Positions 1,536 through 51,391 of a stretch of 64,000 nt of DNA are shown here, piece by piece. The translations under genes and the position numbers were made by a program. Under the pieces are notes generated by a model. That model ran no database searches and was not told where the DNA came from. It saw nothing but the letters and a program-made list of their open reading frames with translations. Numbering within the stretch: the first letter of the stretch is position 1; every line of letters begins with the position of its first letter. Source of the stretch: an uncultured Nitrospirales bacterium (GTDB lineage: Bacteria > UBA10199 > JADGCS01). The stretch is taken from positions 265,318-329,317 of the forward strand of contig CAZSTS010000001.1 in the NCBI GenBank assembly GCA_964609965.1, in the 5' to 3' direction.

Positions 1536-1621
1536 TTACTACTTTTATCAACGAGTCACGAGAGGAAAAGTTTCATGGATTTTGGATTTTTTTAAGGAAT
1601 TTCTAAATAGTTACAGGATTA

Positions 1622-6093: not shown

Positions 6094-6374
6094 AGAACCC
6101 CAGCACACAAGGTGCATGGTTATAAGAAGCAATTAATGGACCAAATCACTCTTAAGGGAATAGATTATTTTTGTTTGTTATTTTAATAAGTTACAAAAGG
6201 TCTATAAAAGCGTAACAATTTGATAGGCAATATCTGCCTAATATTGAGTAGATGAATGCAAAGCTTATACATGGTTAACAATGCTTAAACATAAGAAACA
6301 GGATTATGCGATGGATAACAATGTTGGCAGAAGATAAAGGTTGCAGGTGTCAGATACGTTAATCGATAGTCAGC

Positions 6375-6419: not shown

Positions 6420-8054
6420 TTAATTATCGTGAATAAGATAAGCCCCAAGTCTTTCAATAACATCATCACTGACTGTAAATGACAATTGCCCATCAGCTTG
6501 ATTTAAAAGAGTTCTTGGAACCTGCAAATAAGATATACCCGTTGAAGGAATGCTTCCAGTATAAGGGAAATCATTTATCTCAATAACGGAAGGTCCTTGT
6601 AAATAAGTCCCTCTATAGTCTTCCACTTTACCACGCATTTTAAAGCCAAAAAATTCAAATTGATTACTTTGAGCATAGCCTGAATCTGAAAGATACAGTG
6701 CCAACGAAAAGGAACCTATGAGTTTTTTAAATTCATCCTGACTTAATCCTTCACCTAAAGCAGCTGCCACGACATTACTTTTTCCTACCAAATCTGTTTG
6801 CACCAAAGATTTTAGTAAATCCATACCATCTTGAGTACCTGGAAGATTTCCTAATTCAGCCTGTTCATAAAGGTATTTTACAAAAAGATAAGAGCCCCCT
6901 CTTTGCTCCAGAGTGGTGCCACAAGTAAAACAAATATCTGATACACCTGCTAAATAGCCTGAAACCCGTGATGGGTTTTCAGATCCATATCCTGTAATAA
7001 GCGAATCAGAATTAAGAGTAGAAAAGTCTTCAGCTAAATGAGAAAGACCTTCATTGAGCCATCCAAGTTCGGCTAAGCCATCAGAAACAAAGTAATGTTG
7101 GTTAAAGTTGATCATATGCTGAAACTCATGAGGAAATACATTTGGAAGAACAGAACTCATTGTAAAGGATTTTGAAACAGGTATGCCAAATTTACCATCT
7201 TGATCTGGCACATATGCATACATAATTTCCATTTCGTTACTAAATGGGTATTTTTTTGAATCAAAAAGATCAAGAGCGTAGAAAAAACCTGTAATCATAC
7301 CTCCATATTTTTGACCCAATTCATTAATCACATGACTAAACAAGATAACGAACTTCCCATCACCATTCACATCAGACTCTTGGCCAAAAACACTTCTTTC
7401 CAATAGAAGTATCTTAGTAAAATCTTCTGCTAATGTATTGATTTCCTCATCAGTAAATATGTCATTATCGCGCTTATCAATATACACATCAAAATAGTTG
7501 TTTTGATAACGAAGCTCTGCCGACACGAATTCATAACTATCTACTGAAAAAGAATTTATTATTTTAAACTCACGCTCCTCTCCTATTTTTAAAGCCCTTG
7601 TTAAAAATGCATTTGAAGAAATTTCAGGAAGAGGTTCATTCTCACTCAGGTTGCTTTCACGATTTCTTAAAAGATTATTAAAGTTCTCAACAGGATCTTC
7701 GGTATCTAGTGTGACTTTCTGTAAGAATTGATTGCTCGTCCCAGTAGATGGATCTGCACCATTAGAAAAATCATCGAGCTTGATAGCAACATTGTCATTA
7801 GATTTTTGATAAGAATAAACTGCCAAAACAATATCCCCATCTTTTGTCCCTTCATCTATGGGTACTGTTATTTCACCATTAGAGATATTGAGTTCAGTAA
7901 TATTTCCCCCTACTGCTGTTTTGTATTCTCCTGGTTGATTTGTTGGTGTTTGAGCTGAGAGAGACTCCATAGGGCCATCATAACCGCAGTTAATGGAAAG
8001 AAATATCATTCCAAAAACTGGTAAATACCAATTTGCTGCTTTCCGAGTTTTCAT
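6420..8054 (-). CDS. Secreted/lipoprotein zincin metallopeptidase, paralogue of 4477-6093
   Basis: Signal peptide (MKTRKAANWYLPVFGMIFLSINCG), HEFQHM..WLNEGLSHLAED. Shares blocks with its neighbour (NGDGKF..LF, MEI.Y..VPD, RVSGYL, CF.CGT.L.QRGGSYLFV.YLYEQ.ELGN). Confidence 0.6.
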   Translation of the reverse strand: MKTRKAANWYLPVFGMIFLSINCGYDGPMESLSAQTPTNQPGEYKTAVGGNITELNISNGEITVPIDEGTKDGDIVLAVYSYQKSNDNVAIKLDDFSNGADPSTGTSNQFLQKVTLDTEDPVENFNNLLRNRESNLSENEPLPEISSNAFLTRALKIGEEREFKIINSFSVDSYEFVSAELRYQNNYFDVYIDKRDNDIFTDEEINTLAEDFTKILLLERSVFGQESDVNGDGKFVILFSHVINELGQKYGGMITGFFYALDLFDSKKYPFSNEMEIMYAYVPDQDGKFGIPVSKSFTMSSVLPNVFPHEFQHMINFNQHYFVSDGLAELGWLNEGLSHLAEDFSTLNSDSLITGYGSENPSRVSGYLAGVSDICFTCGTTLEQRGGSYLFVKYLYEQAELGNLPGTQDGMDLLKSLVQTDLVGKSNVVAAALGEGLSQDEFKKLIGSFSLALYLSDSGYAQSNQFEFFGFKMRGKVEDYRGTYLQGPSVIEINDFPYTGSIPSTGISYLQVPRTLLNQADGQLSFTVSDDVIERLGAYLIHDN

Positions 8055-20069: not shown

Positions 20070-20258
20070 ACAAAAGCCCTGCATTGTGCGAGGTAACATA
20101 AGATAAAATGGACCAAATATTTTATCGGGAACTGTCACTGATCTTGGTGTGCCTATCGGCGTTTTGTCCGGGAGCCTAAAGAGATTATATGGTGCCCACC
20201 TGCTTAGCAGGTTCCAATTTTAACATGTTACAAAACGGCAAAAGCGGGGTTTTTTTTT
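20070..20258 (+). ncRNA. ssrS: Candidate 6S RNA
   Basis: Sigma70-like promoter TTGCCG-17nt-CATAAT (20034-20062). Co-linear 5'/3' pairing: 20073-82 with 20244-53, 20093-99 with 20225-31, and 20104-12 with 20213-22. T9 run at the 3' end. Lies immediately upstream of 5-formyl-THF cyclo-ligase, as ssrS-ygfA does in E. coli. Confidence 0.5.
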
Positions 20259-25845: not shown

Positions 25846-25877
25846 AGAGCCTGCTAAAAACAGGCTCTTTTTTTTTG
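25846..25877 (+). terminator. Rho-independent terminator
   Basis: AGAGCCTG-CTAAAAA-CAGGCTCT hairpin followed by a T9 run. Sits between convergent genes. Confidence 0.8.
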
Positions 25878-25881
25878 GATT

Positions 25882-27534
25882 CTAACAAATTCCTCTCAAA
25901 GGCATGAGTTGTGGACCGAGCATGGTGTTCATTCTGAGTGGATTACGTACTCCAGAGGTGAGTGAGAGCAGACCAGCTTCAGTGGCACCTGCTTGTATGG
26001 CCAATTCACGCGAACGCATCCACGTAGAACCATCCATAACACAATCATCTACAAATAATGCCCTTCGACCGTTAAGTGTTACCCCCTGGCCTTTTTCGAA
26101 TCTTAAAACATGATTCACAATCTGTAATTTGTTGTGCAAAATATGACCATCTACTCCGCGAACGCGTGGATCTCTTTCTTGCCAAGGATTCACAGTTTGC
26201 CAACCACCTCGCTCAGCGAGATTTTGTGCTAGCTGTAGGTTTGGATTTCCTGCATTCTCACAACCTGGAATCGGAACTATCACACCACCTTTTTCTCCCA
26301 TCCAATGCCTGGCTCCGGGTACAAGTAACTCAGTTACTCTCTCCATAGCTATTGCATCACCATCGCGATAAGCGTGATAGAGATCTGTAAGATCATGTGG
26401 TCTTGGCGCTCCTTCAGGGTAATAGGTAGTATGCAAATTGCCAGCTACCAAAACATTTGGCCTTTGGGGTAATTCCACCCCCTGCTCTTGCCACCTCTTT
26501 TCCCACGGTCTTGCTAATAATAGCGCATAAAGAAAAGATGGAGTTACAATTCTATCATACTTTGACTTTATCCCTTTTGGATGAGGTTCACCAAAAATGG
26601 CATGCTTAACACTCAGACCATTACAGGCATGGATAGCAAAAACGAAGGGATCAATACCTAATTCTCTAGCTAACTTTTTGAGAAGCTCGTCAGCACTTAA
26701 AAGATTATGTAATGGTTGCCCTCTAGTTACACGATCTTGTGGTTCTCCATTCCATACTTCCCATCCCTTAACAACTCGACGCCAAGTTTGCTTATACCCA
26801 CCAATCCTTTTCCCATAATCGTCTGATCTTTCGGGATCTAATATCTTTCTCACTGTCTCTGGAAAAAGTTGATTCCAAACACTTGCGGCTAGGCTCAGTG
26901 CGATCTGATAACGAACATCTGTTATCATAGAAGCCAGGACATCATAGGCCTCTGGAGCTTGCGTGCTCGTTAAACTTGATTCAGGAACATAAGCTGCTCC
27001 GCTATGAAACTGTACGTTTACAAAATCCTGACCATCCATTTCCATTCTGCCTAGCAACAACTTTCCAACACCAAATTTAGGACTAACATAGTAATCAGCA
27101 CCTAATCGTTCCAAATTCCATGAAATCTCATGATGTTTTCGCGGAACAACTAAAATATCCTGTAATTGAGTAGGAACTTCGGCAAATAATGCCTGAGCCC
27201 CTTTAAGAAACGCATTTGTTGCAACCTCTTCTGGAACATCCTGAAGATCTGTTACTAAACCTTTAATAATAGTATCAAACGAGTCTGCGCCTAATCGTCC
27301 TGCCCTAGGAATCCTTCTTTGTAAAAGTGAATAACTACTCCTTAATCGCCTGGTACTGCTATAACCCTGGCTTTCCAAATGCTGGAGAAAGGTTCTCGAT
27401 TGCCCCTGTATTGCCTCTGCAGCTGCACTCAATTCTTGTTCTGGCAAAACACTTAGAGCCTGTACAGCAGCTTGCATGTCTTCAACCGAAGCAGTGGGAT
27501 CAAAAAAGACGAATGTGTTTAGTTCTGTTGCCAT
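25882..27534 (-). CDS. 550-aa protein: unknown ~400-aa N-terminal region fused to a ComF-like phosphoribosyltransferase domain
   Basis: C-terminus has a PRPP-binding-like motif (RRALFVDDCVMDGSTW), preceded by VIVPIPG...NPNLQLAQNLAE as in ComF-type PRTases. GC is visibly higher than the neighbours. Confidence 0.6.
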   Translation of the reverse strand: MATELNTFVFFDPTASVEDMQAAVQALSVLPEQELSAAAEAIQGQSRTFLQHLESQGYSSTRRLRSSYSLLQRRIPRAGRLGADSFDTIIKGLVTDLQDVPEEVATNAFLKGAQALFAEVPTQLQDILVVPRKHHEISWNLERLGADYYVSPKFGVGKLLLGRMEMDGQDFVNVQFHSGAAYVPESSLTSTQAPEAYDVLASMITDVRYQIALSLAASVWNQLFPETVRKILDPERSDDYGKRIGGYKQTWRRVVKGWEVWNGEPQDRVTRGQPLHNLLSADELLKKLARELGIDPFVFAIHACNGLSVKHAIFGEPHPKGIKSKYDRIVTPSFLYALLLARPWEKRWQEQGVELPQRPNVLVAGNLHTTYYPEGAPRPHDLTDLYHAYRDGDAIAMERVTELLVPGARHWMGEKGGVIVPIPGCENAGNPNLQLAQNLAERGGWQTVNPWQERDPRVRGVDGHILHNKLQIVNHVLRFEKGQGVTLNGRRALFVDDCVMDGSTWMRSRELAIQAGATEAGLLSLTSGVRNPLRMNTMLGPQLMPLRGIC

Positions 27535-27600
27535 AATAATGAGTATGTAACTAAATTTATCTACGAGTTTCTAGATTTGTTTCTTATTTAGAAAAAAAAT

Positions 27601-27616
27601 GGACACAAATGTGTCC
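27601..27616. promoter_or_regulatory. 16-bp palindrome GGACAC-AAAT-GTGTCC in a divergent intergenic region
   Basis: Perfect 6+4+6 inverted repeat. Related copies at 40343-40358 and 49912-49927. Confidence 0.6.
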
Positions 27617-27777
27617 AATCAAAATCAAGTTCTAAAGTGAAAGTTTTGAAGATGGTGATAAGCGTCCTGTATCCCTCTGGATACAGCTTTGCCTCTTTTT
27701 AGCAGCCCCTCCTTCTCTTTTATTGTAAGAAAATAATTAGGGTGTACAAATAATATAATCAAAAAATGGAGGATCCT

Positions 27778-28230
27778 ATGTGTGCAGATATCATTACAGG
27801 GAATGAAGTCCAAGCAGATCCATCAAGAAATTCAGCAGCAGATGCTGTTAATCCCACGCCAACAAAGGCTGAATTGGTTCTGAGATTAGTTGAGCAAGAC
27901 TGGTTTATGTCACAGGATAACGTTACGCAAGAAACGTTGATCAGGGCCATTGTTAATGGTGAAAGAACCGATCTTGAGAGCATGCGTACTGAGATTGTTA
28001 GGGATGAAATCAGGATGGCGGCTTCTCGATATGAAGAATGTGTGTTAGACAAATTGCTTCCAAAGTTCACGACAGAAACTTTACCGACATTACAAAGTCA
28101 CATTCTCACACACGATCGGGTTCGCGTAGGCCTGGAAGAGTGTTTTCAAGAATCAATGACCCCTTTTTCACATCCACCAATTGCAGATGAGAAAATTGAA
28201 TACTCAGATCCTTTGACAGATGCGGGGTAA
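27778..28230 (+). CDS. Hypothetical protein (150 aa)
   Basis: ORF with GGAGG 5 nt before the ATG at 27778. Divergent from the PRTase-fusion gene. No family recognised. Confidence 0.5.
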   Translation: MCADIITGNEVQADPSRNSAADAVNPTPTKAELVLRLVEQDWFMSQDNVTQETLIRAIVNGERTDLESMRTEIVRDEIRMAASRYEECVLDKLLPKFTTETLPTLQSHILTHDRVRVGLEECFQESMTPFSHPPIADEKIEYSDPLTDAG

Positions 28231-29867: not shown

Positions 29868-29941
29868 TGGGCCCAGTTGGACTTGAACCAACGACCCGCC
29901 GGTTATGAGCCGGCTGCTCTAACCAACTGAGCTATGGGCCC
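29868..29941 (-). tRNA. tRNA with CAU anticodon (Met, or Ile2 if lysidine-modified); CCA not encoded
   Basis: Reverse complement reads GGGCCCATAGCTCAGTTGGTTAGAGCAGCCGGCTCATAACCGGCGGGTCGTTGGTTCAAGTCCAACTGGGCCCA. It forms a 7-bp acceptor stem and D, anticodon (CUCAUAA loop) and T arms. The T arm resembles E. coli tRNA-Ile2 as I recall it. Confidence 0.9.
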
Positions 29942-29951
29942 GAAAATTTAC
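29923..29951. repeat. 29-bp direct repeat, copy 1 (tRNA nt 1-19 plus 10 nt of 5' flank)
   Basis: CCAACTGAGCTATGGGCCCGAAAATTTAC is identical to 30160-30188. Confidence 0.95.
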
Positions 29952-30159
29952 GGAGGAAATTTTCCCTCCATTTTCAAATGCGATTTTCAAATATAAAATA
30001 AACTCAATAGCTGCTCGTCTTCGGCTTTGCTCCTGAACGTCGCTTGCCTCAGACCCACCTCAGATTGCTTTCGTTCGTTCGCTAGATCGCTTCTCTCACT
30101 TTTCCTCGCTCCTGCTCGGCGCAATCTTCGGCTCTCGTTCACTGGGCCGTTCACTCAAG

Positions 30160-30188
30160 CCAACTGAGCTATGGGCCCGAAAATTTAC
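30160..30188. repeat. 29-bp direct repeat, copy 2
   Basis: Identical to 29923-29951. Preceded by a 208-bp GC-rich segment (29952-30159). Confidence 0.95.
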
Positions 30189-34441: not shown

Positions 34442-34519
34442 GCGATATTTTTAATATATGTCATGCAAAATACAAAGGATTTTTATTTTCCGTTGACATC
34501 ACGCCTCCTTTCCTGTTTT

Positions 34520-34705
34520 GCATGCGCCCATCAGGTTCCAATGGATTAAAAGGGAAGTTGGTGCAAATCCAACACGGTCCCGCCGCTGTAAGTGGGGATT
34601 GTGATAGCCACAATGTCACTGCTTATCGAAACAGATAAGTGGGAAGGCGCTAGCCACAAGGTGATCCACAAGTCAGAAGACCTACCTGCTTGCCACGCCG
34701 TAGTC
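34520..34705 (+). promoter_or_regulatory. Cobalamin (B12) riboswitch
   Basis: AAAAGGGAAGTTGGTGCAAATCCAACACGGTCCCGCCGCTGTAAGTGGGGA core, GTCACTG...GGGAAGGCG, and B12 box AAGTCAGAAGACCTACCTGC. A GTCAGC-CTGG-GCTGAC hairpin follows. Confidence 0.85.
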
Positions 34706-36368: not shown

Positions 36369-39275
36369 ATGAAACCTTTAAAAGTATATCTATATTTAAT
36401 TTTTATCATTTCTATTTTTGTTTTCTTGTTACATTTTTCAGGCTCTGTTGGTTGCGGTGGTGGTTCGAGTGGCAGCGTGGCCCTTGGCTACGGTGATATC
36501 ACAGGAGGTGTGGTTCTAGAAAACCTCACTACATCTAAGTCATTTGATTCGAACGCGAGTATTTCTGTACCAAAACTCACAAGTTCTACACAAAGATACG
36601 TGACCCTAAACAATACAAACCTAAAATACCTCGCAGCAAGTTCGCCTCAAATCAAATATGCTATTGACTCCTCTGTTTCAGGAACAGCCTCACTCATTGA
36701 TTTGGAAGGAAACGTAATAGAAACAAGTGACTTTAATGGTGAGTTTAGTTTTACAAATACTCTAGAAGGAACCTATCTAGTAAAAGTAGTTATTGCTAAA
36801 CCTACAGGCCTTGCCAACTTGATGATAAAAACCTTTGTCGATGTTTCAGCAGGAGGAACAACCGTTGCAGTTCCTAATCCCCTTTCAACTGTTGTTGTCG
36901 AAAAAGCCATAGAAACAGGAAATGAACACGGCATTGTTGGTGACTCATTAAATGGTTTTAACCTTAGTATGATGATATCAATAATTGATGATTGTTTCGG
37001 ATCTCAATACTACTCCAAAGGAATAGATGACAAATTAGAGGCCAGTAATCTTGCAGACTCAAATGGCATTCCTTATGACTTGGCTACAATCGCTGATATG
37101 TTTGAAGACCTGCCAGACTCCTGCAAAACACTTGGCTACACATCATTTGCTCGCGGCAAACTTTTGGCTGCTGGTAAGGATTTTAAAAAAGTCACACAAG
37201 CCTTGGGTGAAATCTTTCTTCAATTAGGTTTTATTGTTATGCCTGATCAGCATGAATCCGTCCTCACTGAAACCCTTGGAGATTATGCGGTAGAAAATTA
37301 TTGCCAAGACCCTCAAGGTTGTGATGGCAGTGAAGAATGGAAAAAGCCTCTCGATCACACTGTCTTTGTACCCACAAGCTTTGAAAAAAATAGAAACCAC
37401 CCAGATGATGATCCCTGGTATTGGTTACCTATGATTTCGGAATATCGCATTAAATTTCTCGCTCAAGCCTATGTAGATGACTTAACAGTCACTGCTACCC
37501 AAATACATAGGGCTATTGTCGATAAAAAAGGTTTATGGATGAGTCTTTGTTTTGAGTCAGGCTTTGGTAGCCAATACTGTTTTGATACAGATGGCAAACC
37601 TGCATTAAACATGGTCTATGGCCCTGACCACGTAGACCCACTCCTTGATGAAGATGATATACAAGAACCTAGTTGTGCACAAATACTTCCCATTCTTTGT
37701 GATCCTGGAGAAACCATAGATACATTTGCCGCTAAAACCATTAATATGGCTACGATTAAAGAAGATATTATCTTCCAACGAATCCATCTTGATCATAATA
37801 TCACAGGTGGCCCCAATTTATGGGTCGTGTTTGATGGTTGGGATGGCAATAAGGACTCCAAGGCTGTAAAAGTAAACATTAACAGAGGCGATGATTTTGA
37901 GATCACGTCTGTTGTACAATCTGAGGTTGGTAAATATTACCTTACTCAACGTCACGACACATCTGAAAATGGGACTATTGGTTTTATTAAAGTCGATGAC
38001 GGTCGCTGGGTCTCTAAAGATAACGGAGAAGAACTTACATACAACATTGATAATGTCATATTACTAGAGGGTGTATCAGTAAAGGAAACAGGATCAAATA
38101 TATATGGAGGTTCTGTAATAATTAATGACATGCATTTTGGAGTTGTAGGTGATGGTTGGCAGGCTGGATCTAGCCCAATTGAAGTATATATGACGTATGA
38201 AAACGGTCAGCACTCAGCCGCCCAGATCGATGAAGGTGCTACAGGCACTCCACATTATCTTATGTGGAATGAAGATACGCATGAAAAGGCAGTCGTAAAT
38301 TTCTTGAATAGCGAAAATGGTCAATGCGTTTTAGATGATCCTTCAGATGAAGAATCAGAGGCCAACCCCTGTCTTGAGGGGGCTCTCGGAGATATCATTG
38401 GGCTCTTTGAACATGAATACCGTGACATGCATACATATATCTTTAATGGCACAGTGGACAACCCACTCTATGATAGAGAAGCAGATCCCTACTTTGATGA
38501 TCTTCCAGACACAGGTAATCTCTGCAACATTGATGCTGACGGTGATGGCAAGCAAGATCCTGGTGACGGCATTCTTTGTACAAAAACTCTTTTAGATAAA
38601 AACCTTTGCGATGCACTTGAAGATACATTTTCATGGCATATCATCCACACAAACTTAGATGCCCCTTACAGTGTCCACGAGGACTACTACAGATGGGCTG
38701 AATCAAAACAATTTGTGCGATTTAATGGAGAAGAAGATGAAGGTGAAGTCCAGACTATTGCGTGCGGGGATTCTTTTGATTGGCGGACCCTGCCACCACA
38801 TCCAGATGATAATCAAAACCTCATCCCTCCAGAGAACACTCCTGGTGATTCATTTGACTATATGAAAACCCCAGCCCAAAACGGACTTGTGCCACGCAAC
38901 TTTAGGGCCCTTGCCAATGCCTATGCAGTGGGAAGACCCAATGCCATAACCAATTTAGCATCACTGGCCTTTGGAGGACACTCAACAGTTGGTCCTACAA
39001 CAGAGTTCAACATCATCGAGGCCTTTGCCATGATCTACACAGCAATCAGTGTAGACACAAATGTGACTGTTGCGGGCTCTCTTCTCTTAGAAGACGCCTT
39101 GTATGACCACGAAACCATGCAGTACGTGGACTTGGAACTCATTGATGAAATGTTCCATGCCACATTCTATCAACCATGGATGCATAAAGAGGGGGAGCAC
39201 AAGAGTGACTATCAAAGGATATTAGAAATTTTTGGAATTAGTGAAGACTACTTGCATGATAAAGGTATTTATTAG
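36369..39275 (+). CDS. Large (968 aa) secreted/lipoprotein of unknown function
   Basis: Signal peptide with SVGC-GGG lipobox-like site. Long uninterrupted ORF with Asp-rich calcium-binding-like stretch (NIDADGDGKQDPGDG). No family recognised. Confidence 0.6.
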   Translation: MKPLKVYLYLIFIISIFVFLLHFSGSVGCGGGSSGSVALGYGDITGGVVLENLTTSKSFDSNASISVPKLTSSTQRYVTLNNTNLKYLAASSPQIKYAIDSSVSGTASLIDLEGNVIETSDFNGEFSFTNTLEGTYLVKVVIAKPTGLANLMIKTFVDVSAGGTTVAVPNPLSTVVVEKAIETGNEHGIVGDSLNGFNLSMMISIIDDCFGSQYYSKGIDDKLEASNLADSNGIPYDLATIADMFEDLPDSCKTLGYTSFARGKLLAAGKDFKKVTQALGEIFLQLGFIVMPDQHESVLTETLGDYAVENYCQDPQGCDGSEEWKKPLDHTVFVPTSFEKNRNHPDDDPWYWLPMISEYRIKFLAQAYVDDLTVTATQIHRAIVDKKGLWMSLCFESGFGSQYCFDTDGKPALNMVYGPDHVDPLLDEDDIQEPSCAQILPILCDPGETIDTFAAKTINMATIKEDIIFQRIHLDHNITGGPNLWVVFDGWDGNKDSKAVKVNINRGDDFEITSVVQSEVGKYYLTQRHDTSENGTIGFIKVDDGRWVSKDNGEELTYNIDNVILLEGVSVKETGSNIYGGSVIINDMHFGVVGDGWQAGSSPIEVYMTYENGQHSAAQIDEGATGTPHYLMWNEDTHEKAVVNFLNSENGQCVLDDPSDEESEANPCLEGALGDIIGLFEHEYRDMHTYIFNGTVDNPLYDREADPYFDDLPDTGNLCNIDADGDGKQDPGDGILCTKTLLDKNLCDALEDTFSWHIIHTNLDAPYSVHEDYYRWAESKQFVRFNGEEDEGEVQTIACGDSFDWRTLPPHPDDNQNLIPPENTPGDSFDYMKTPAQNGLVPRNFRALANAYAVGRPNAITNLASLAFGGHSTVGPTTEFNIIEAFAMIYTAISVDTNVTVAGSLLLEDALYDHETMQYVDLELIDEMFHATFYQPWMHKEGEHKSDYQRILEIFGISEDYLHDKGIY

Positions 39276-40234
39276 TCCCTGCTACCAGGAAAAGCTTGCA
39301 TAAACGCAACGAGCAGCCTTCTTTGTTGTGGCGCAGGACTCTCACCAACAAAAGCCATTAGATCTTCTCGCGTCTGATCAATTATATCTGTATTCAACCG
39401 CAAAACTTCATTACGTATCAGTCGTCTTCCTTCAAACCAAGGACGATTAATGCGCAAAGAATGATTTCTCTGTGCTACATCCACTGCTTGAACAAGAAGC
39501 TCTGGGGCACCTAAGAAAAAATCAAGATGATTGTTAATAAGATCTAAAAAGAAATCACGTCTCGTTGGTGGCATTTCATCGAGAAAATTAGTAGCAGATG
39601 GCCTCAGGAGTTGAATGAGTGTTCCTTTTTCTTGGGGTGTAAGCCTGGCTATCTCTTCATCTGAAAAGAGATTATAAACATAGGTCAAAACCGTTACTTC
39701 ATGAGGTGCACGACAGTTTCGTAAGAGCCATGGTAATAATCTGCTCCCTCGCCCTCTTTCATCATATGTCAGCAGTAACCTTTGTAAGGTTGGCATTAGG
39801 AATTTATAGGTTCCTTGACGACTTACTTCATCTGCTTGAGGGTGGTTGGGAATCACATTTTCAACCCTCAATCCTTGAGCTTGATAATGTTCAATTCCTT
39901 TATTCTTACCTTTTATCAAACGTTGTGAAGGATTAACTGAAAAGGCTTCACGAGCAGCAGCTCGAATTGAATGCCGTGCACGAAAGATTGCAACCCCACC
40001 GAAAACAACAATACCAAAAGCCAGAGCCAAATCACATGAACTCCATGTGTGTTGTGCACGAGCACCAACAGGCTCATGAACAGGAACTACTGTACGAAGC
40101 TCTTGTTCAGCTTCATCTGCTGCAAGTACTTCCGTTCCTTGAAACGCTTGTTTAAATGCAGCACAACCAGCGCCTAAAAGAGCTAAAGACGTACCTGCCA
40201 CTATGGCAGGCGAAGAATAAATTGTTGAACTCAT
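39272..40234 (-). CDS. Hypothetical protein with two N-terminal hydrophobic segments (320 aa)
   Basis: Start set at MSSTIY (RBS AAGAGG 7 nt upstream); the track ORF extends to 40402 across a regulatory palindrome. TM-like AIVAGTSLALLGAGCAAF and LALAFGIVVFGGVAIF. Higher GC than the flanks. Confidence 0.55.
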   Translation of the reverse strand: MSSTIYSSPAIVAGTSLALLGAGCAAFKQAFQGTEVLAADEAEQELRTVVPVHEPVGARAQHTWSSCDLALAFGIVVFGGVAIFRARHSIRAAAREAFSVNPSQRLIKGKNKGIEHYQAQGLRVENVIPNHPQADEVSRQGTYKFLMPTLQRLLLTYDERGRGSRLLPWLLRNCRAPHEVTVLTYVYNLFSDEEIARLTPQEKGTLIQLLRPSATNFLDEMPPTRRDFFLDLINNHLDFFLGAPELLVQAVDVAQRNHSLRINRPWFEGRRLIRNEVLRLNTDIIDQTREDLMAFVGESPAPQQRRLLVAFMQAFPGSRD

Positions 40235-40342
40235 ACGGTAACCTCTTGATTTTTCTGTATTTCTATGCACCCTGTTACCGCATTCATTATATCGCATCCT
40301 TTTAGATAAAGTTGCGTAAAAAAACAATCTTATCATAATGAT

Positions 40343-40358
40343 GGACACAGAAGTGTCC
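40343..40358. promoter_or_regulatory. 16-bp palindrome GGACAC-AGAA-GTGTCC in a divergent intergenic region
   Basis: Perfect 6+4+6 inverted repeat with the same arms as 27601-27616. Lies between the 39272-40234 (-) and 40532 (+) genes. Confidence 0.6.
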
Positions 40359-40531
40359 GGAAAATTTATTTGAAAAAACCACGAAACTTTTGTTAACCAC
40401 AAGCGATATTGGGTTAGAATTCTACAGATTAGAATTCTTTATAGGGTGCTACCCGTTCCGATTATGGGCAAATAATCACAGGGTGCAAATCAAAAAATAA
40501 AATATATCCTCCTCAACGAAAGGATTAGTTT

Positions 40532-41329
40532 ATGCTTACTAGAGCCATACAACAAAGTTTTGCTTCACTTGTAACTCCATTAGAAACCATTGCAGTTCAA
40601 GATCCAGGAGTTCAGCAAGTTATCATACAAGGACTTAATGCTGCACTGAGCGTAACTCCATTTGCAGAAGGCCATAGGGGTCAATATGCTCATCTTACAG
40701 GACAAGATGGTTCTATAGCACCAGCCTTTTTAGCGTGGAATCTGCGGAAAGCTCATGTCGCTCTTGGATACACACCGAATGACCGAGTAATCCTTGAACA
40801 AGTGGCCTTTGATATAACACATACTGACATCCCTCCTGTTGTTGGTATGGTCACATCATCATACTCATACCTGCTTGTAAATTCCGGAAATCCACGTGTG
40901 AAAGATGGTCGATCCGGCCTAACCTTACCAGGCAGTGTTGTTCACAATGCAAGTTTTCCTTTTGCAAGAGTTCATCAGCAAATTATTCAAGAAGATCGTT
41001 TTGATCTTGATGCGATTCTCATGCAAGCAGGTGTTAGCTCTGCAGCTGAGTTCAGTGAATTATGGACCAAATTTGATAAAAGCATAGATGAACTAGAATT
41101 AAGTGTAAGAACTAGAAATGCTATTCAAAATGCTAACATTGTTTATATTGGTGAACTTGTGCAAAAAACAGAAGTTGAATTACTCAAAACCAAAAACTTT
41201 GGTCGTAGATCCTTAAATGAGATTAAAGAAGTCCTTGAAGATATGTTTGGCCTTTCACTAGGCATTGATGTTGGAGAGTGGAGAGCACCAAATGTACGAC
41301 CTGCTGGCAGTAGTATTCAAGGGCATTAA
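40532..41329 (+). CDS. Orphan alpha-CTD protein A: novel N-domain + RNA polymerase alpha C-terminal domain
   Basis: C-terminus [58 protein letters not shown] closely resembles RpoA alpha-CTD. The N-terminal ~175 aa are shared only with the paralogues at 42378 and 43344. Confidence 0.75.
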
Positions 41330-41399
41330 ATTGCTAGTGTATTCTTGATTGCATCTCATCAAATCTTATGGTATTATTATTTTATATTAAGGTAATACC

Positions 41400-41681
41400 A
41401 TGATATTTAGCTTTAAACTCAGTCCTGCCCTTTTAGAAAAACTTCAAGTGTGTGCGCAAGATTTCGGTGAATCTAAAGGCACTCTTATCAGACATGCCCT
41501 CGAAGAATATCTCGAAAAGAACAAAGACTTCAAATCCCGCATCAAAAAACTTACAGACAAACTCAAAAAACCTACTAAAAAAACAAAAACAAATTGGGAA
41601 TCAATCTATAATAATACGCGTTGTGATTTAGACGAAGCTCCAGAACAAGAAGTCTTGCGCGTCCGTAGAAGGGGTTTATGA
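41400..41681 (+). CDS. Ribbon-helix-helix (CopG/VapB-like) antitoxin
   Basis: 93 aa. N-terminal RHH-like text (FKLSPALLEKLQVCAQDFGESKGTLIRHALEEYL). 4-nt ATGA overlap with the downstream PIN gene. Confidence 0.6.
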   Translation: MIFSFKLSPALLEKLQVCAQDFGESKGTLIRHALEEYLEKNKDFKSRIKKLTDKLKKPTKKTKTNWESIYNNTRCDLDEAPEQEVLRVRRRGL

Positions 41682-42124
41682 AAAAAGCCTTTATCGATTC
41701 TGACGTGTTTATTCGTGACTTGCGTTATCCAAGAGATAAAAAAACAAAAACAAACACACTTTTTCTCAAAAAAGTAAAATCAGGCAAGATTAAAGCCTAC
41801 ACTTCAATCTTTAATATCTTAGAAATCTGCGGCATTCTTTCTTATAATCTTTCCCAAGAGCAGCTCATAAAACTCTATAGTGAATTTTGTGCTCATTATG
41901 GTGTAAAAATTCTCTTCCCTGCAGATAGCACTGGGAATCTTGACTATGACATTGCCACGATCTTTAAACAAATATCTCACAAGCAATCATTCGGTGATGC
42001 TCAAATCTCTTATGTCATCGATCGCTTTAAAAACGACATTTCATCATTCATATCCTGGAATGCCAAACACTTTGAGGGTAAGATCCCTTTTCCTTGTTTA
42101 ACCCCAGAATCGTATATGAAGTAG
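41678..42124 (+). CDS. vapC: PIN-domain toxin (VapC-like)
   Basis: MKKAFIDSDVFI (first acidic residue), later D/E positions and C-terminal SWNAKHF typical of PIN. Coupled to the RHH gene. Confidence 0.6.
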   Translation: MKKAFIDSDVFIRDLRYPRDKKTKTNTLFLKKVKSGKIKAYTSIFNILEICGILSYNLSQEQLIKLYSEFCAHYGVKILFPADSTGNLDYDIATIFKQISHKQSFGDAQISYVIDRFKNDISSFISWNAKHFEGKIPFPCLTPESYMK

Positions 42125-42155: not shown

Positions 42156-42377
42156 ATGATCGAAATCTTTGGGCGACCACAGGGGGTCGCCCCTACAAAA
42201 ACCTAATTTGCCGTTAGGCAAAACATTACCCCCCCCACGCTGTACCCTGTACGTAGTATGCAAGACACCCCACCCTGTGTACACTCTGAACACGAAAATT
42301 GCACATCCAACGCAACATTTTCTCAAATCTCTCTGATAACAAGCTAGACAGTTCGAAGAATTTTATTAGGAGGGAAT

Positions 42378-43142
42378 ATGGTTTCACCTGCTGTTCAAAG
42401 TAGTTTTCCTGCAATAGGAGGCTCGTTAGAGGCAATTGCTGCCCTTGATTCTAGAATTCAGGTTCAGTTCATTGATTCAATGAATACAGCACTTGATTTA
42501 GTTACCATTGGGGGAGTCCGCAGAAGTCAATTTGCTCATATGACAGGAAAATATTCTGATCCACGTCCAGTTCATCTCACTTGGGATATTAATCAAGAAC
42601 TTTCTGCCCTTGGTTTAGCTCCAGGCGATACCCTGCCCGATAGATTACGTTTTGATCTAGCACGTGAAGAGGTTCCACCAGCTGTGGCCATACTCACCGC
42701 ATCCTTTACGTACCTCGTCGTAGATTCTAATCAACACGCTATTCAGGATGGTGCATTGGGATTAAATGTACCAAGAAGACTTGGTCACGATCCAAAATTT
42801 CCTTATGTAAAAGTTCATCAACACCTGACTCATGTAGATCGTTTTGATATGAATAGATTTGTGGCAGATGCATCAGCTGGACTTACACCTGCATCTACTA
42901 GTTTTTGGAATAGCTTAGATAAATGTATAGATGATTTTGAACTAAGTGTAAGAGCTAGTAACTGTCTACAAAATGCCAATATAAAATATGTCGGTGAACT
43001 TGTGCAAAAAACAAGAACTGAATTACGTAAAATAAAGAATTTTGGAAGGAAAACCATAGACGAAGTGGTAGATGTAATTCTCACACCACTGGGTCTTTCC
43101 CTTGACATGGATGTCCGTGGCTGGACACCGCCTTCTAAATAA
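42378..43142 (+). CDS. Orphan alpha-CTD protein B (paralogue)
   Basis: C-terminus DDFELSVRASNCLQNANIKYVGELVQKTRTELRKIKNFGRKTIDEVVDVILTPLGLSLDMDVRGWTPP. N-domain is homologous to A and C (PPAVAILTASFTYLVVDSN, FPYVKVHQ, DRFDM). Strong RBS AGGAGGG. Confidence 0.75.
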   Translation: MVSPAVQSSFPAIGGSLEAIAALDSRIQVQFIDSMNTALDLVTIGGVRRSQFAHMTGKYSDPRPVHLTWDINQELSALGLAPGDTLPDRLRFDLAREEVPPAVAILTASFTYLVVDSNQHAIQDGALGLNVPRRLGHDPKFPYVKVHQHLTHVDRFDMNRFVADASAGLTPASTSFWNSLDKCIDDFELSVRASNCLQNANIKYVGELVQKTRTELRKIKNFGRKTIDEVVDVILTPLGLSLDMDVRGWTPPSK

Positions 43143-43215
43143 ATAAACTCCATTTTTCCCTGGAATCAAAATCCCAGGCTCTAGCATTTTGTCCCTCTGG
43201 GACAACAGCATAAAG

Positions 43216-43235
43216 CCGGAGACTTCAGTCTCCGG
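43216..43235. promoter_or_regulatory. 20-bp palindrome CCGGAGAC-TTCA-GTCTCCGG upstream of paralogue C
   Basis: Perfect 8+4+8 inverted repeat. Its core GGAGAC-N4-GTCTCC has the same geometry as GGACAC-N4-GTGTCC. It could alternatively be the terminator hairpin of gene B, but no T-run follows. Confidence 0.4.
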
Positions 43236-43343: not shown

Positions 43344-43940
43344 ATGATTTCAAAGGCTATACAACAACATCTGACTTCATTGGTCGGACCTTTAACAAGT
43401 ATTTCTAAGTTTGATAGTGGAGCACAAGAATTAATGATAAGAGGAATGAATGCTGCTCTTGGTATTGGCGTAACTCCATTTTCAGGTAAACATAGGGCTC
43501 AATATGCTCGTATTGTAGGAGAAGACAGAAGTGCTAAACCTGCCTACCTAGCCTGGAATATTGATAGATCACTAGCAGCTCTTGGATTTTCACCAGGCGA
43601 CAGAATGCCCGCAAGAGTGCATCTAGATTTAATACACGAGGAACTCCCTCCAGTTTTAGCTATAGTCACTCCATCATATTCATTTCTTTTAGCAAACTCT
43701 GGAAATGAATTTGTCCAAGACGGAGACTTAGGAATTACCCTTCCAGACTCGCTTCCCCATGATGATTCTTTTCCTTTTGTAAGAACTCATCAACTACCTC
43801 TCCAAGCAGATCGCTTTGACCTTCAAACAATCTTGGCCTTAACGGGTTTTTCAGAACTTTCGTTAGAGGACGATTCATTTTCCACTGACAGTGCCTTAAT
43901 AAAAAACTTGATAAACCAATCACTGACCTTCTTCATCTAA
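43344..43940 (+). CDS. Orphan alpha-CTD protein C, N-domain segment (frame 0; stops at 43938-40)
   Basis: The N-domain is about half identical by eye to protein A (HRAQYARIVGEDRSAKPAYLAWN, PPVLAIVTPSYSFLLANSGN, FPFVRTHQ, DRFDL). The frame ends 31 nt after an A_AAA_AAC heptamer. Confidence 0.7.
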   Translation: MISKAIQQHLTSLVGPLTSISKFDSGAQELMIRGMNAALGIGVTPFSGKHRAQYARIVGEDRSAKPAYLAWNIDRSLAALGFSPGDRMPARVHLDLIHEELPPVLAIVTPSYSFLLANSGNEFVQDGDLGITLPDSLPHDDSFPFVRTHQLPLQADRFDLQTILALTGFSELSLEDDSFSTDSALIKNLINQSLTFFI

Positions 43941-44389
43941 TAGAGGATCTTGCCCATAGAAGAATAGCACAAAAGGCTTTTGAGACACTCGAAATCCGTT
44001 ACATTGGTGACCTCATTCAACTCACAGAAAAAGAACTTCTCAAAGCACGTAACTTTGGTCGAAAATCTTTATGGAGTGTGAGAGGCACTCTAAATGAAAT
44101 GGATCTTGATCTTGGAATGTCAAATACAGAAGGTTGGTCACGGCCAGTTCAAGGAAGAGTACATTTTAACAATAAAATAGGAACACTAGATATATCTGTA
44201 AAAGCTGAAACCCTCTGTGCTCAAGCTGGCATTACCTACATCGGTGAACTTGTACAAATGACAGAAAGAAATCTTTTTCATACGAAAATCCTTGGTCGTC
44301 ATTGCATATCCGACCTCCGTGAAGCTCTTGCTGAACTAGGACTTAGCCTTAATATGGATGTTCAAGGCTGGACACCGCCAACATCCTAA
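43889..44389 (+). CDS. Orphan alpha-CTD protein C, C-terminal segment (-1 frame) with two alpha-CTD-like repeats
   Basis: The frame is open from 43889: ..KKLDKPITDLLHLIEDLAHRRIAQKAFETLEIRYIGDLIQLTEKELLKARNFGRKSLWSV.. and ..LDISVKAETLCAQAGITYIGELVQMTERNLFHTKILGRHCISDLREALAELGLSLNMDVQGWTPP. There is no plausible independent start/RBS before 44078. Confidence 0.65.
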   Translation, partial: QCLNKKLDKPITDLLHLIEDLAHRRIAQKAFETLEIRYIGDLIQLTEKELLKARNFGRKSLWSVRGTLNEMDLDLGMSNTEGWSRPVQGRVHFNNKIGTLDISVKAETLCAQAGITYIGELVQMTERNLFHTKILGRHCISDLREALAELGLSLNMDVQGWTPPTS

Positions 44390-45195: not shown

Positions 45196-45282
45196 ACCTA
45201 CGCACCTAAGCGCCTACGAGCCAACGCCAGAGAATTTCTTTGTTTTTCCGTAGGAGCATAGGTGCCTAGGATCGTAGGAGCA
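45196..45282. repeat. 7/8-nt phased pseudo-repeat forming a long imperfect hairpin
   Basis: Begins right after the stop codon. 45197-45218 (CCTACGCACCTAAGCGCCTACG) is about 19/22 complementary to 45249-45270 (CGTAGGAGCATAGGTGCCTAGG). TAG recurs every 8 nt. Confidence 0.8.
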
Positions 45283-49599: not shown

Positions 49600-49895
49600 A
49601 CCCCCCCTCATAAACTCAATATATTAGTTTTCCGCCCTCCCGGGTATTTTATGTTTATTCGCCCCTCATCCGGTCTTCAACTCACTACGTTCGCTCAGAC
49701 CACCTTCTCCCCAGCGGGGAGAAGGAGATTTTGCCCTCGCCCCTTTGGGGAGAGGGTGGTTCGAGTATAAACGAGAACCGGGTGAGGGGAGACAAAAAGA
49801 ACCTTTTTTTAAGACTAGATCCCTGTCTCCACAGGGATGACATGTTTGTTATTTGGAATTTGGAATTTGCTTGGAATTTGGGATTTGGGATTTTT
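49600..49895. repeat. Cluster of GC-rich REP-like hairpins plus an ATTTGGA heptad run
   Basis: CCTTCTCCCC-AGC-GGGGAGAAGG (49703-49725), ATCCCTGT-CTCC-ACAGGGAT (49820-49839) and ATTTGGA-type heptads (49851-49895). The track ORFs here look like translations of repeats. Confidence 0.7.
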
Positions 49896-49911: not shown

Positions 49912-49927
49912 GGGCACAAACGTGCCC
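49912..49927. promoter_or_regulatory. 16-bp palindrome GGGCAC-AAAC-GTGCCC upstream of the 50011 gene
   Basis: Perfect 6+4+6 inverted repeat, one transition per arm away from the 27601 and 40343 copies, 84 nt before the ATG. Confidence 0.55.
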
Positions 49928-50010: not shown

Positions 50011-50772
50011 ATGTCAGCCGCCTTATGTTTAGAAGCAATCCACAGTGTAACAGCCGCATCGTTTGCAGGCTATGCTGGCATGAACCCAGGCGACCAAGCC
50101 ACAGCACTTCTAAGTGCTCATAGAGACATTTCTCAAATAACAAAGGAGCAAGGTGCCATGATCATTACAGGTCGAATGCTGGGACCACGAGGCATTGTTG
50201 GCCCTACTCTTCTTTTACTAAAACCAAATTGTGAAGTTGGCATAGGTGTTGTTCCTGTTGATGACTTTCCTTTACACATTGGATTCTACACTCAATCAGG
50301 ATCTCGCTTGACAAGCAGCTCTCTCCCAGGAAGAATGACGTTTGTCTCTCCAGGCCTTATCTCTGACGCAGCTGATCATTCCCACCCACATTTAAGAGCT
50401 GAGCAAGACCATCCATTAAGATCTCCTGATGCCAGAATTCCTTATTCAGTATTATTACAAATGCGTGTTAGTCAGGACCTACTTGTTTCTTCTGCAAGTG
50501 TATTTGGGGCATCTATGATAGATTCTGATCTACCACCACCTTTTAACATTGTACTCGAATCGCTCCCTTTTAGCCCTGATACAAAACTCAAATTGAGAGC
50601 TTCTGAACTCGAAACTGTCGCCGATCTTGTTAAACTTAGGCCCTTAGTTCTTATACAATCAGGTGTTTTTTCTCATAGCAATGTATCTGAAATACGTGAA
50701 ATCGTACACTCAGTTGGGCATCGATACGGAGTTGATGTGCATTTGGGGATGGAGGTTCCAGAGTGCCTCTAA
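50011..50772 (+). CDS. Hypothetical protein with a degenerate alpha-CTD-like (helix-hairpin-helix) C-terminus
   Basis: RBS GAGGAG. C-terminus LESLPFSPDTKLKLRASELETVADLVKLRPLVLIQSGVFSHSNVSEIREIV aligns loosely with the ELSVR..NI.YIGELVQ....L.....FG..SL.EI pattern but lacks the R265/N268 equivalents. Higher GC. Confidence 0.5.
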   Translation: MSAALCLEAIHSVTAASFAGYAGMNPGDQATALLSAHRDISQITKEQGAMIITGRMLGPRGIVGPTLLLLKPNCEVGIGVVPVDDFPLHIGFYTQSGSRLTSSSLPGRMTFVSPGLISDAADHSHPHLRAEQDHPLRSPDARIPYSVLLQMRVSQDLLVSSASVFGASMIDSDLPPPFNIVLESLPFSPDTKLKLRASELETVADLVKLRPLVLIQSGVFSHSNVSEIREIVHSVGHRYGVDVHLGMEVPECL

Positions 50773-51338
50773 ACAAACCCTATAATCTTTTCATGAATAG
50801 CTTCTATAGATAAGTTCTCATCAATTCTTAACAAAGGTTTGTCGATACTAAGAGCTTCATAAGCTTTAGTAATGGCTTTAAGATACCCATCATCTAACCC
50901 AATATCATCACATTTTTGATGCTCTGTTTTAGAATGTCTTTTCTGAATTTCGTCAGCATCAAGAGTCATGAATATAACTTTATGAGTAGCCTCACAGATA
51001 TTGTCACACATCATTTGAAAAGTCTTTGCTTGTGATTCGGTGATGTTATTGAAGATAGCTTCAACCTCAAACCACGCTTTGCCATCAAACCCACCTCTAT
51101 CAAATATAAAATAATCACATTTGTCCTCAAATTTGTAATATTCTTCTAATGTTTTAGAAATAAAAGTCGATATGTATTCAAGTCGGTTTTTAGAAGGAAT
51201 GATAATTGAACCTGCAACATCTCGATCATTTGTTGCCGCAACCTTATAACCTTTATTTTCGAGATGTTTTGTTAAAAGCTTAATTTGTGTTGTTTTCCCA
51301 GTTCGTGGAAGACCTAGGAATTCTATTATCTTGGGCAT
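50769..51338 (-). CDS. P-loop NTPase, nucleoside/nucleotide kinase-like
   Basis: Walker A GLPRTGKTTQIKLL at the N-terminus. About 190 aa, a size typical of dNK/thymidylate-kinase-like proteins. Family not resolved. Confidence 0.5.
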   Translation of the reverse strand: MPKIIEFLGLPRTGKTTQIKLLTKHLENKGYKVAATNDRDVAGSIIIPSKNRLEYISTFISKTLEEYYKFEDKCDYFIFDRGGFDGKAWFEVEAIFNNITESQAKTFQMMCDNICEATHKVIFMTLDADEIQKRHSKTEHQKCDDIGLDDGYLKAITKAYEALSIDKPLLRIDENLSIEAIHEKIIGFV

Positions 51339-51354
51339 AAAACCATCTCCTCTT

Positions 51355-51391
51355 CACATAGGCTCCTAGGAGCATAGGCGCGTAGGCTCGA
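51355..51391. repeat. 8-nt phased TAGG pseudo-repeat
   Basis: CATAGGCTCCTAGGAGCATAGGCGCGTAGGCTCG has TAG every 8 nt and includes the 12-bp palindrome GCTCCTAGGAGC. Abuts the stop of the 51392 gene. Confidence 0.8.

Follow-up and report, generated by a model that had tools for sequence, protein, structure and literature searches.

A 16-bp palindrome shared by intergenic regions beside orphan genes and alpha-CTD fusion genes in an uncultured marine bacterium

Palindrome sites and their orphan-gene neighbours

The DNA analysed here, a 64-kb stretch referred to as the window, comes from the chromosome of an uncultured diderm bacterium (about 39% G+C), and a short palindrome that recurs in its intergenic regions, at sites designated s1 to s4, is the subject of this report. 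The genes and elements of the window include BamA, ClpS/ClpA, TrpS, TyrS, XerD, 6S RNA, a cobalamin riboswitch and tRNA-Met. The same sequence has been assembled from several marine metagenomes, with six metagenome copies of the locus being identical or differing by 1 single-nucleotide polymorphism in 21 kb, and the nearest ClpA (73% identity) comes from a metagenome-assembled genome labelled Nitrospirales. GTDB has no representative genome of this species. A pattern scan of the window found three exact matches to GGRCACNNNNGTGYCC (GGRCAC-N4-GTGYCC) and no fourth (s1, s2 and s3; Table 1), which agrees with an earlier sequence-only reading of this DNA that had listed three perfect copies and no further full copy. 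The variant of the same geometry described in that reading (s4, half-site GGAGAC) was present as well, and the start-codon distances it gave were correct to within 1–2 nt: in the divergent regions the palindrome lies 66 and 108 nt from the minus-strand ATG and 161 and 173 nt from the plus-strand ATG, and the nearest orphan ATG is about 66–111 nt from each site.

At s1, s2 and s3 the palindrome is an inverted repeat of 6+4+6 geometry whose half-site centres are 10 bp apart, and the arms of s3 carry symmetric substitutions relative to s1 and s2, A to G in one and T to C in the other. The central 4 nt are AAAT, AGAA and AAAC, and correspond to neither a GNRA nor a UNCG tetraloop. Outside the palindrome, s2 and s4, which lie upstream of paralogues A and C respectively, show modest flank similarity (13/28 positions identical; at least 14 is reached with a frequency of 0.009 in the null), and the flanks of s1 and s3 are unalignable with those of the other sites (4–11/28 positions).

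The genes beside the palindromes are strict orphans, found only in this uncultured marine lineage. For the 550-aa protein next to s1 we found no Pfam match, a best PDB match of E = 0.76 and no homologues in a word-indexed protein search, and the protein with two transmembrane segments (two-TM) next to s2 matches itself alone among 5.8 billion proteins. Three further orphan genes, paralogues A, B and C, encode a 170-aa N-terminal domain (N-domain) joined to the RNA polymerase alpha subunit's C-terminal domain (alpha-CTD). A profile of the N-domain run against 1.84 billion representatives of 15 billion proteins recovered A, B and C only, with two eukaryotic matches being rejected as repeat-protein artefacts. 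A word-indexed search with paralogue A returned nothing beyond its own family, no relative of the N-domain was found in GTDB genomes, and the N-domain had no PDB sequence or Pfam match. The alpha-CTDs, on the other hand, are confidently recognised: A, B and C match Pfam PF03118 (RNA_pol_A_CTD) with 81.3, 77.4 and 37.1 bits against a curated cut-off of 23.8 (E = 4e-23 for A), and in an AlphaFold2 (AF2) model of paralogue A built from a 3-sequence alignment the alpha-CTD has a predicted local distance difference test score (pLDDT) of 80–87, compared with < 50 for the N-domain. By eye, A, B and C retain equivalents of the E. coli alpha '265 determinant' (R265, N268, N294, G296, K298/R, S299, E302). 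Unlike the RNA polymerase alpha subunit, however, they have no alpha N-terminal (assembly) domain, and a domain found nowhere else takes its place.

Paralogue C carries two tandem alpha-CTD copies in a different frame from its N-domain; this frame encodes them from about 43888, and the gene is frameshifted identically in every assembly, so that C is either a pseudogene or requires a frameshift. The protein encoded at 50011, beside s3, scores 9.7 bits against the A/B/C profile (the best of 2000 shuffles reached 5.8), although hhalign gives a probability of 3.8% and Pfam does not detect it; judged from its sequence, it is probably a remote, degenerate paralogue of A, B and C. The sequence-only reading had called these dispersed genes 'GC-richer', and as a foreign mark this label was not borne out. 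The orphan genes have a G+C content of 0.40–0.44 and a G+C content at third codon positions (GC3) of 0.23–0.35, at or under the genome norm, and because GC3 is low their raised G+C reflects amino-acid content and not foreign origin. A defence or phage origin was also considered and rejected: the one PADLOC match was weak, alpha-CTD-like and limited to part of PglW, and PHROGs gave nothing for the orphan genes. P0076, a candidate for the host RpoA, was set aside because it was derived from other samples and probably belongs to another organism. We found nothing relevant in the literature on the half-site or on stand-alone alpha-CTD proteins.

Table 1. Palindromes, adjoining genes, promoter-like elements and shared words, with positions in the window.
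Feature	Position	Strand	Sequence or description	Setting or basis
s1	27601-27616		GGACACAAATGTGTCC; core GGACAC-AAAT-GTGTCC	Between 550-aa orphan gene (minus) and 150-aa orphan gene (plus); pattern scan
s1 extended	27600..27617	.	TGGACACA-AA-TGTGTCCA	Minus-strand T8 directly after
s2	40343-40358	.	GGACACAGAAGTGTCC; GGACAC-AGAA-GTGTCC	Between two-TM orphan gene (minus) and alpha-CTD paralogue A (plus); pattern scan
s3	49912-49927	.	GGGCACAAACGTGCCC; GGGCAC-AAAC-GTGCCC	83 nt 5' of 50011 gene, clpS start 346 nt away; pattern scan
s4 (variant)	43216-43235	.	CCGGAGAC-TTCA-GTCTCCGG	74 nt past paralogue B stop, 108 nt ahead of paralogue C
550-aa orphan gene	25882..27534	-	C-terminus faintly phosphoribosyltransferase (PRTase)-like	
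150-aa orphan gene	27778..28230	+		
Two-TM orphan gene	39272..40234	-	320 aa	
Paralogue A	40532..41329	+	Orphan 170-aa N-terminal domain and RNA polymerase alpha-CTD	
Paralogue B	42378..43142	+	Architecture as paralogue A	
Paralogue C	43344..44389	+	N-domain open reading frame 43344-43940, then two tandem alpha-CTD copies in another frame	
50011 gene	50011..50772	+	253 aa	Adjoins s3
Sigma-70-like promoter candidate, two-TM gene	40332..40359	-	CGGACA-16-TATGAT	Consensus scan only
Promoter-like element	40312..40339	+	TTGCGT-16-CATAAT	By eye, no tool match
UP-element-like A/T tract	40361..40378	+	1 mismatch to consensus AAAWWTWTTTTNNNAAA	Directly after s2
Extracytoplasmic function (ECF)-type promoter-like element	40383..40407	+	GAAACTTTT-N12-CGAT	
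ACAGGGTG copy	40268..40275	-		39 nt before two-TM ATG
ACAGGGTG copy	40478..40485	+		47-54 nt before paralogue A ATG; related AGGGTG at 40443
ACAGGGTG copy	42271..42278	-		Upstream of paralogue B; adjoins GTGTACAC (42277-42284)
AGGGTGTACAAAT	27739..27751	+		39 nt before 27778 ATG
ACAGGG/AGGGTG words	40268-40275 (-), 40443-40448, 40478-40485, 42271-42278 (-), 27739-27744, 49753-49758, 49821-49836			6-mer comparison

Rarity of the palindrome and other words shared with it

The palindromes are real and non-random, and chance is an unlikely source of them. The pattern GGRCAC-N4-GTGYCC had zero matches across 100 dinucleotide-preserving shuffles of the window, no further copies in the 9.1 kb and 8.3 kb (17.5 kb in all) of genome flanking it, and no matches in 1.01 Mb of unrelated bacterial sequence, made up of 85 loci. 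The 3 sites in these 81.5 kb of window and flanks all lie in divergent intergenic DNA adjoining orphan genes, where s1–s3 occupy three of the window's ten divergent (-+) intergenic regions. When up to 2 mismatches were allowed we found 7 sites in the window, compared with 0.71 expected; the three extra near matches (4723, 46177, 63427) are non-palindromic and within coding sequence, and no imperfect copies were found in the window's intergenic DNA. Isolated half-sites were not enriched when those in palindromes were set aside (36 observed, 6 of them within palindromes, versus 25 expected). A scan of metagenomes with an extended s2/s4 consensus gave only two hits, both ascribed to chance and lying in an unrelated L25/Pth locus, and did not recover even the source contigs of the window's own sites.

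It remains to be weighed that, in an AT-rich genome, a few palindromes containing G+C might resemble one another by accident, the more so as the motif was defined only after the sites were seen. For this reason we ran a motif-agnostic test, which looks among perfect 6-4-6 palindromes, of which the window holds 38, for the best cluster whose half-sites differ by at most one mismatch and weights it by composition. The weighted score was reached by 32/2000 first-order Markov sequences (p about 0.016). The unweighted version of this test was not significant, with 35/400 shuffles reaching a cluster of 4, AT-rich palindromes being dominant, and GGACAC as a plain 6-mer ranks only ninth among enriched words (p = 1e-3, uncorrected). 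Against these points stand the weighted result, the intergenic position of all four sites when only 14/38 (37%) of perfect 6-4-6 palindromes are intergenic, the empty scan of other genomes, and the presence of other enriched words in the same intergenic regions. Together they leave accidental resemblance very improbable.

Those other words emerged from an unbiased comparison of 6-mers, in which the five orphan intergenic regions (1439 nt) were set against the whole window. ACAGGG ranks first, with 8/29 window occurrences inside these regions (p = 1.8e-7), and AGGGTG third, with 6/20 (p = 3.8e-6). ACAGGGTG, which has three copies in the window, occurs exclusively within orphan intergenic regions, usually 39–54 nt before a start codon. 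The sequence-only reading had noted AGGGTG(T)ACAAAT / CACAGGGTGCAAAT as weaker shared motifs; they are present, but AGGGTG was underrated, since by the 6-mer comparison ACAGGG/AGGGTG is in fact the strongest shared word. The 8-mer GTGTACAC that it had also pointed out does occur at both of its positions, although we estimate that two copies are not significant. In the s1 and s2 regions alike, 130 nt separate the centre of the palindrome from AGGGTG (40480 being the AGGGTG position used for s2), and this equal spacing, together with the enriched words, suggests common control regions.

Duplicated intergenic regions as the source of the shared sequence were rejected. Local alignment scores between orphan intergenic regions were no higher than those of control regions, and the proteins flanking different sites are unrelated to each other. 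Because the regions align no better than controls, what they share is short motifs and not duplicated DNA, with the flanks of s2 and s4 as the exception. The ACAGGGTG copies before the two-TM gene and paralogue A are parts of a 25-nt inverted repeat (40251-40275 / 40478-40502), and an invertible promoter between its arms had no support, as the orientation is the same in every assembly.

Operator, RNA hairpin or relic repeat

Our tentative preference, held with somewhat less than even confidence, is that the palindromes are operators in double-stranded DNA, bound by a single homodimeric protein or by closely related ones, and that they are placed in control regions which divergently transcribed, species-restricted genes share. 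The arm sequence, beyond its ability to pair, is kept between intergenic regions that are otherwise unalignable, and the divergent intergenic location is promoter territory without an upstream gene to terminate. We favour an operator over a generic hairpin because generic hairpins and terminators do not keep their stem sequence at unrelated loci. Operators commonly have A/T-rich dyad centres. Since the half-site centres are 10 bp apart, or one helical turn, a dimer would touch the two half-sites from one face of the DNA.

The -35 element and spacer of the candidate promoter CGGACA-16-TATGAT are the s2 palindrome itself, so a dimer bound there would overlap the predicted -35/spacer of the two-TM promoter. 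It would also cover the predicted start site of a sigma-70-like promoter of paralogue A, TTGCGT-16-CATAAT, which would set the transcription start within the left arm of s2. One dimer at s2 may thus control both genes in a tetR/tetA-like arrangement. TTGCGT-16-CATAAT resembles the promoter of this genome's 6S RNA, TTGCCG-17-CATAAT; the 6S RNA gene (20073-20254), whose promoter is readable, served as the local promoter standard. In addition, s2 is centred roughly 63–67 bp upstream of an ECF-type promoter-like element, with an A/T tract resembling an upstream promoter (UP) element between them. UP-consensus-like sites number 3 distinct ones in the window, about as many as expected overall. The ECF-type element has the same -35 and spacing as a sequence upstream of the window's ECF sigma gene (GAAACTTTT-N12-CGTT, 1550-1574), while its -10 element is CGA versus the ECF-type CGT. 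The ECF sigma factor gene itself (855-1535, minus) was identified by Pfam, with TGAAAC-N16-CGTT upstream at 1550-1574 (minus), and the gene just past the left end of the window may encode its anti-sigma factor. The sites, how rare they are, where they lie and the lack of relatives of the genes are what the data show; promoters, binding and the direction of regulation are all things that we infer from the DNA.

A sigma-54 promoter (GG-N10-GC, TGGCAC-N5-TTGC, strictly spaced) was considered for the sites and, by inspection, rejected on spacing: s1 and s2 carry GT instead of GC at -12, and s3 offers either a GGCAC/TGC match that is a base too short or a -24 element of TGGGCA.

In its arrangement s2 is like the divergent operators of the tetR/tetA type, being a perfect inverted repeat between divergent genes that overlaps promoter-like hexamers. 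It is also like class I activator sites, which lie near -61.5 with alpha-CTD on adjacent DNA, in having an A/T-rich UP-like tract before a -35-like element. Set beside known homodimer operators, however, the sites have no cognate regulator of a known family next to them, show this promoter geometry at s2 only and lack asymmetric degeneracy.

Several observations weigh against an operator. No known family of regulators is represented among the genes adjoining the sites, and no DNA-binding fold can be recognised in the paralogues' N-domain (AF2 pLDDT < 50; no PDB/Pfam match). The promoter context of s2 is not reproduced at s1 or s3, where no promoter match is convincing and the nearest look-alikes, GAAAG-N19-CGTC and GAAAC-N13-CGTA, are mis-spaced. 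All four sites are perfectly symmetric, and the s3 and s4 variants have altered both arms together; such two-sided changes fit selection on base pairing, as operators usually degenerate asymmetrically. The minus strand of s1 is a textbook stem followed by T8. Finally, the sites number only 3–4, with no orthologous promoters among the genes of 5.8–15 billion proteins.

Some of these observations are what would be expected of RNA hairpins, and it is possible, if rather doubtful, that the palindromes act as such: as a 5'-leader stem-loop of the nearest orphan gene, or as a terminator that ends a short upstream transcript or attenuator. A hairpin of this kind could stop or stabilise transcripts, or bind an RNA-binding protein. 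Each site folds as a hairpin of 6–8 bp (−9.6 to −14.8 kcal/mol; s1 −9.7, s2 −9.6 and s3 −11.7 kcal/mol), and the variants retain full pairing through their two-sided changes (GGGCAC/GTGCCC, GGAGAC/GTCTCC). On the minus strand s1 forms a terminator-like 7 bp stem with TTTTTTTT facing the 550-aa gene, s3 has a weak T-rich terminator-like tail on the plus strand facing 50011, and s4 is the last of three tandem hairpins (43159-43235) arrayed past the stop codon of paralogue B. Perfect G+C hairpins are also concentrated in the orphan intergenic regions, which hold 10/22 of the intergenic ones in 16% of intergenic length, and the distance to the nearest orphan ATG is narrow (66–111 nt).

Other features fit an RNA element poorly. 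There is no U-tract on either strand of s2, and the divergent regions of s1–s3 have no same-strand upstream gene to terminate, only s4 following a stop codon. The predicted promoters at s2 put the palindrome upstream of or across start sites and not inside transcripts. The loops are not stable tetraloops, larger structure is not significant around s1 (z = −1.9) and modest around s2 (z = −2.9), and plain terminators are not expected to conserve stem sequence across unrelated genes. Compared with intrinsic terminators and attenuators, then, the sites share a short G+C stem and a 4-nt loop, with the T8 tail of s1 and the weak T-rich tail of s3, but differ in the missing U-tract at s2 and s4, in their divergent location and in a stem sequence conserved between loci. 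No Rfam family reached threshold at any site. The nearest was RF01687, Acido-Lenti-1, at 43190-43235 (26.1 bits on the minus strand and 19.9 on the plus strand; gathering score 37), where on the minus strand a 12-nt linker joins an 8-bp hairpin, which has a CUGA-like loop, to a 5-bp hairpin; this likeness is sub-threshold, and s4 alone matches whereas s1–s3 do not.

We also weighed whether the sites are a small palindromic repeat resembling repetitive extragenic palindromic (REP) sequences or miniature inverted-repeat transposable elements (MITEs), or a relic of duplicated paralogue upstream regions, which would persist by descent or self-propagation and have no regulatory role. The adjoining genes are lineage-specific additions: in the closest relative found (L006, 5589-5684; ClpA 73% identical) apgM is 95 nt from clpS, and by comparison the 50011 gene together with a kinase-like P-loop gene of 189 aa (50011-51338), and the 445 nt that bear s3, are inserted between apgM and clpS. 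The flank positions shared by s2 and s4 point in the same direction, as do odd repeats carried by the same regions, namely a hairpin at 49693-49766, heptamers near s3 and a 20-nt inverted repeat around the 550-aa gene. Nevertheless, we consider such a repeat unlikely. There are 3–4 copies in 81.5 kb and none 3' of convergent genes, where REPs accumulate, and no RAYT or transposase was seen among the annotated genes of the window and flanks. Because the flanks of s1 and s3 are unalignable with the others, there is no element larger than the palindrome, and a perfect 6+6 palindrome kept while the surrounding DNA was randomised argues for selection. With REPs and bacterial interspersed mosaic elements (BIMEs) the sites have in common that they are short, sequence-conserved extragenic palindromes in more than one copy; they are unlike them in their very low copy number, in not lying at gene 3' ends, in that no RAYT was seen and in having no flanking tetranucleotide common to all copies.

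The repeats just named have features of their own. The hairpin at 49693-49766, between clpS and the 50011 gene, is long and imperfect, and its region folds with z = −5.8. The heptamers (TTTGGAA/TTTGGGA, 49853-49895) lie in the same 445-nt region that is missing from the closest relative. The 20-nt inverted repeat (25846-25865 / 27691-27710; 85% complementary) encloses both the 550-aa gene and s1, and its 25846-25865 copy is within a bidirectional terminator-like hairpin with an 11-bp stem.

Candidate binders and what the element would mean

If the palindromes are operators, the alpha-CTD fusion paralogues, encoded beside three of the four sites, would on pure inference be the obvious candidate binders, and their binding would amount to autoregulation. 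A more elaborate version of this proposal, which we put forward only as an improbable joint claim drawn from sequence, is that A, B, C and the degenerate 50011 protein form a new, species-restricted class of transcription factor whose orphan N-domain would dimerise on the palindrome, that half-site variants co-evolved with the paralogues (GGACAC with A and with the 550-aa/150-aa pair, GGAGAC with C, GGGCAC with 50011), that the alpha-CTD would occupy the adjacent UP-like tract or capture partners of polymerase alpha, and that the fusions would thereby imitate the polymerase's own alpha-CTD at these promoters or compete with it.

The ribbon-helix-helix (RHH) antitoxin encoded downstream of paralogue A was judged an unlikely binder of the palindrome because it has a promoter-proximal inverted repeat of its own with a different sequence. 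This repeat, GGTATTA-N16-TAATACC (41370-41376 and 41393-41399, within 41370-41399), lies just before the RHH-PIN toxin-antitoxin pair (41400-42124) and is probably the antitoxin's own operator.

Elsewhere in the window, two separate intergenic regions (45251-45282 and 51359-51390) carry octamers repeated in tandem, of the form TAGGNNCN. The 5' part of tRNA-Met and upstream DNA (29906-29951) is duplicated over 46 nt at 30143-30188, 237 nt away and with 85% identity, and could be either a fragment of the tRNA or the scar of an old integration. A cobalamin riboswitch (34516-34703; 106 bits) lies 5' of genes for 407-aa and 968-aa proteins without family assignment, and two adjacent paralogous genes (4477-6132 and 6420-8054) encode proteins of about 550 aa with 42% identity, likewise without family assignment.

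The sequence-only reading had concluded that a common site for a dimeric transcription factor, or a conserved 5'-UTR (untranslated region) hairpin, ties these separated loci into one system. A shared cis-element linking the loci is a fair reading because the palindromes are real, non-random and beside lineage-specific genes, and the conclusion is partly supported; of its two forms the dimeric factor site is tentatively the likelier. The palindrome, a candidate operator or hairpin, belongs to an ordinary class of element; its context, genes found in one species only, is unusual, and the gene family with free-standing alpha-CTD fusions is of more interest than the palindrome itself. If the sites are only hairpins or relic repeats, the finding is routine. 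If they are operators, they would mark a small private regulon made wholly of genes from one uncultured marine lineage, and the 16-bp sites together with two or three small proteins would provide a synthesisable handle on the function of the orphan alpha-CTD fusions.

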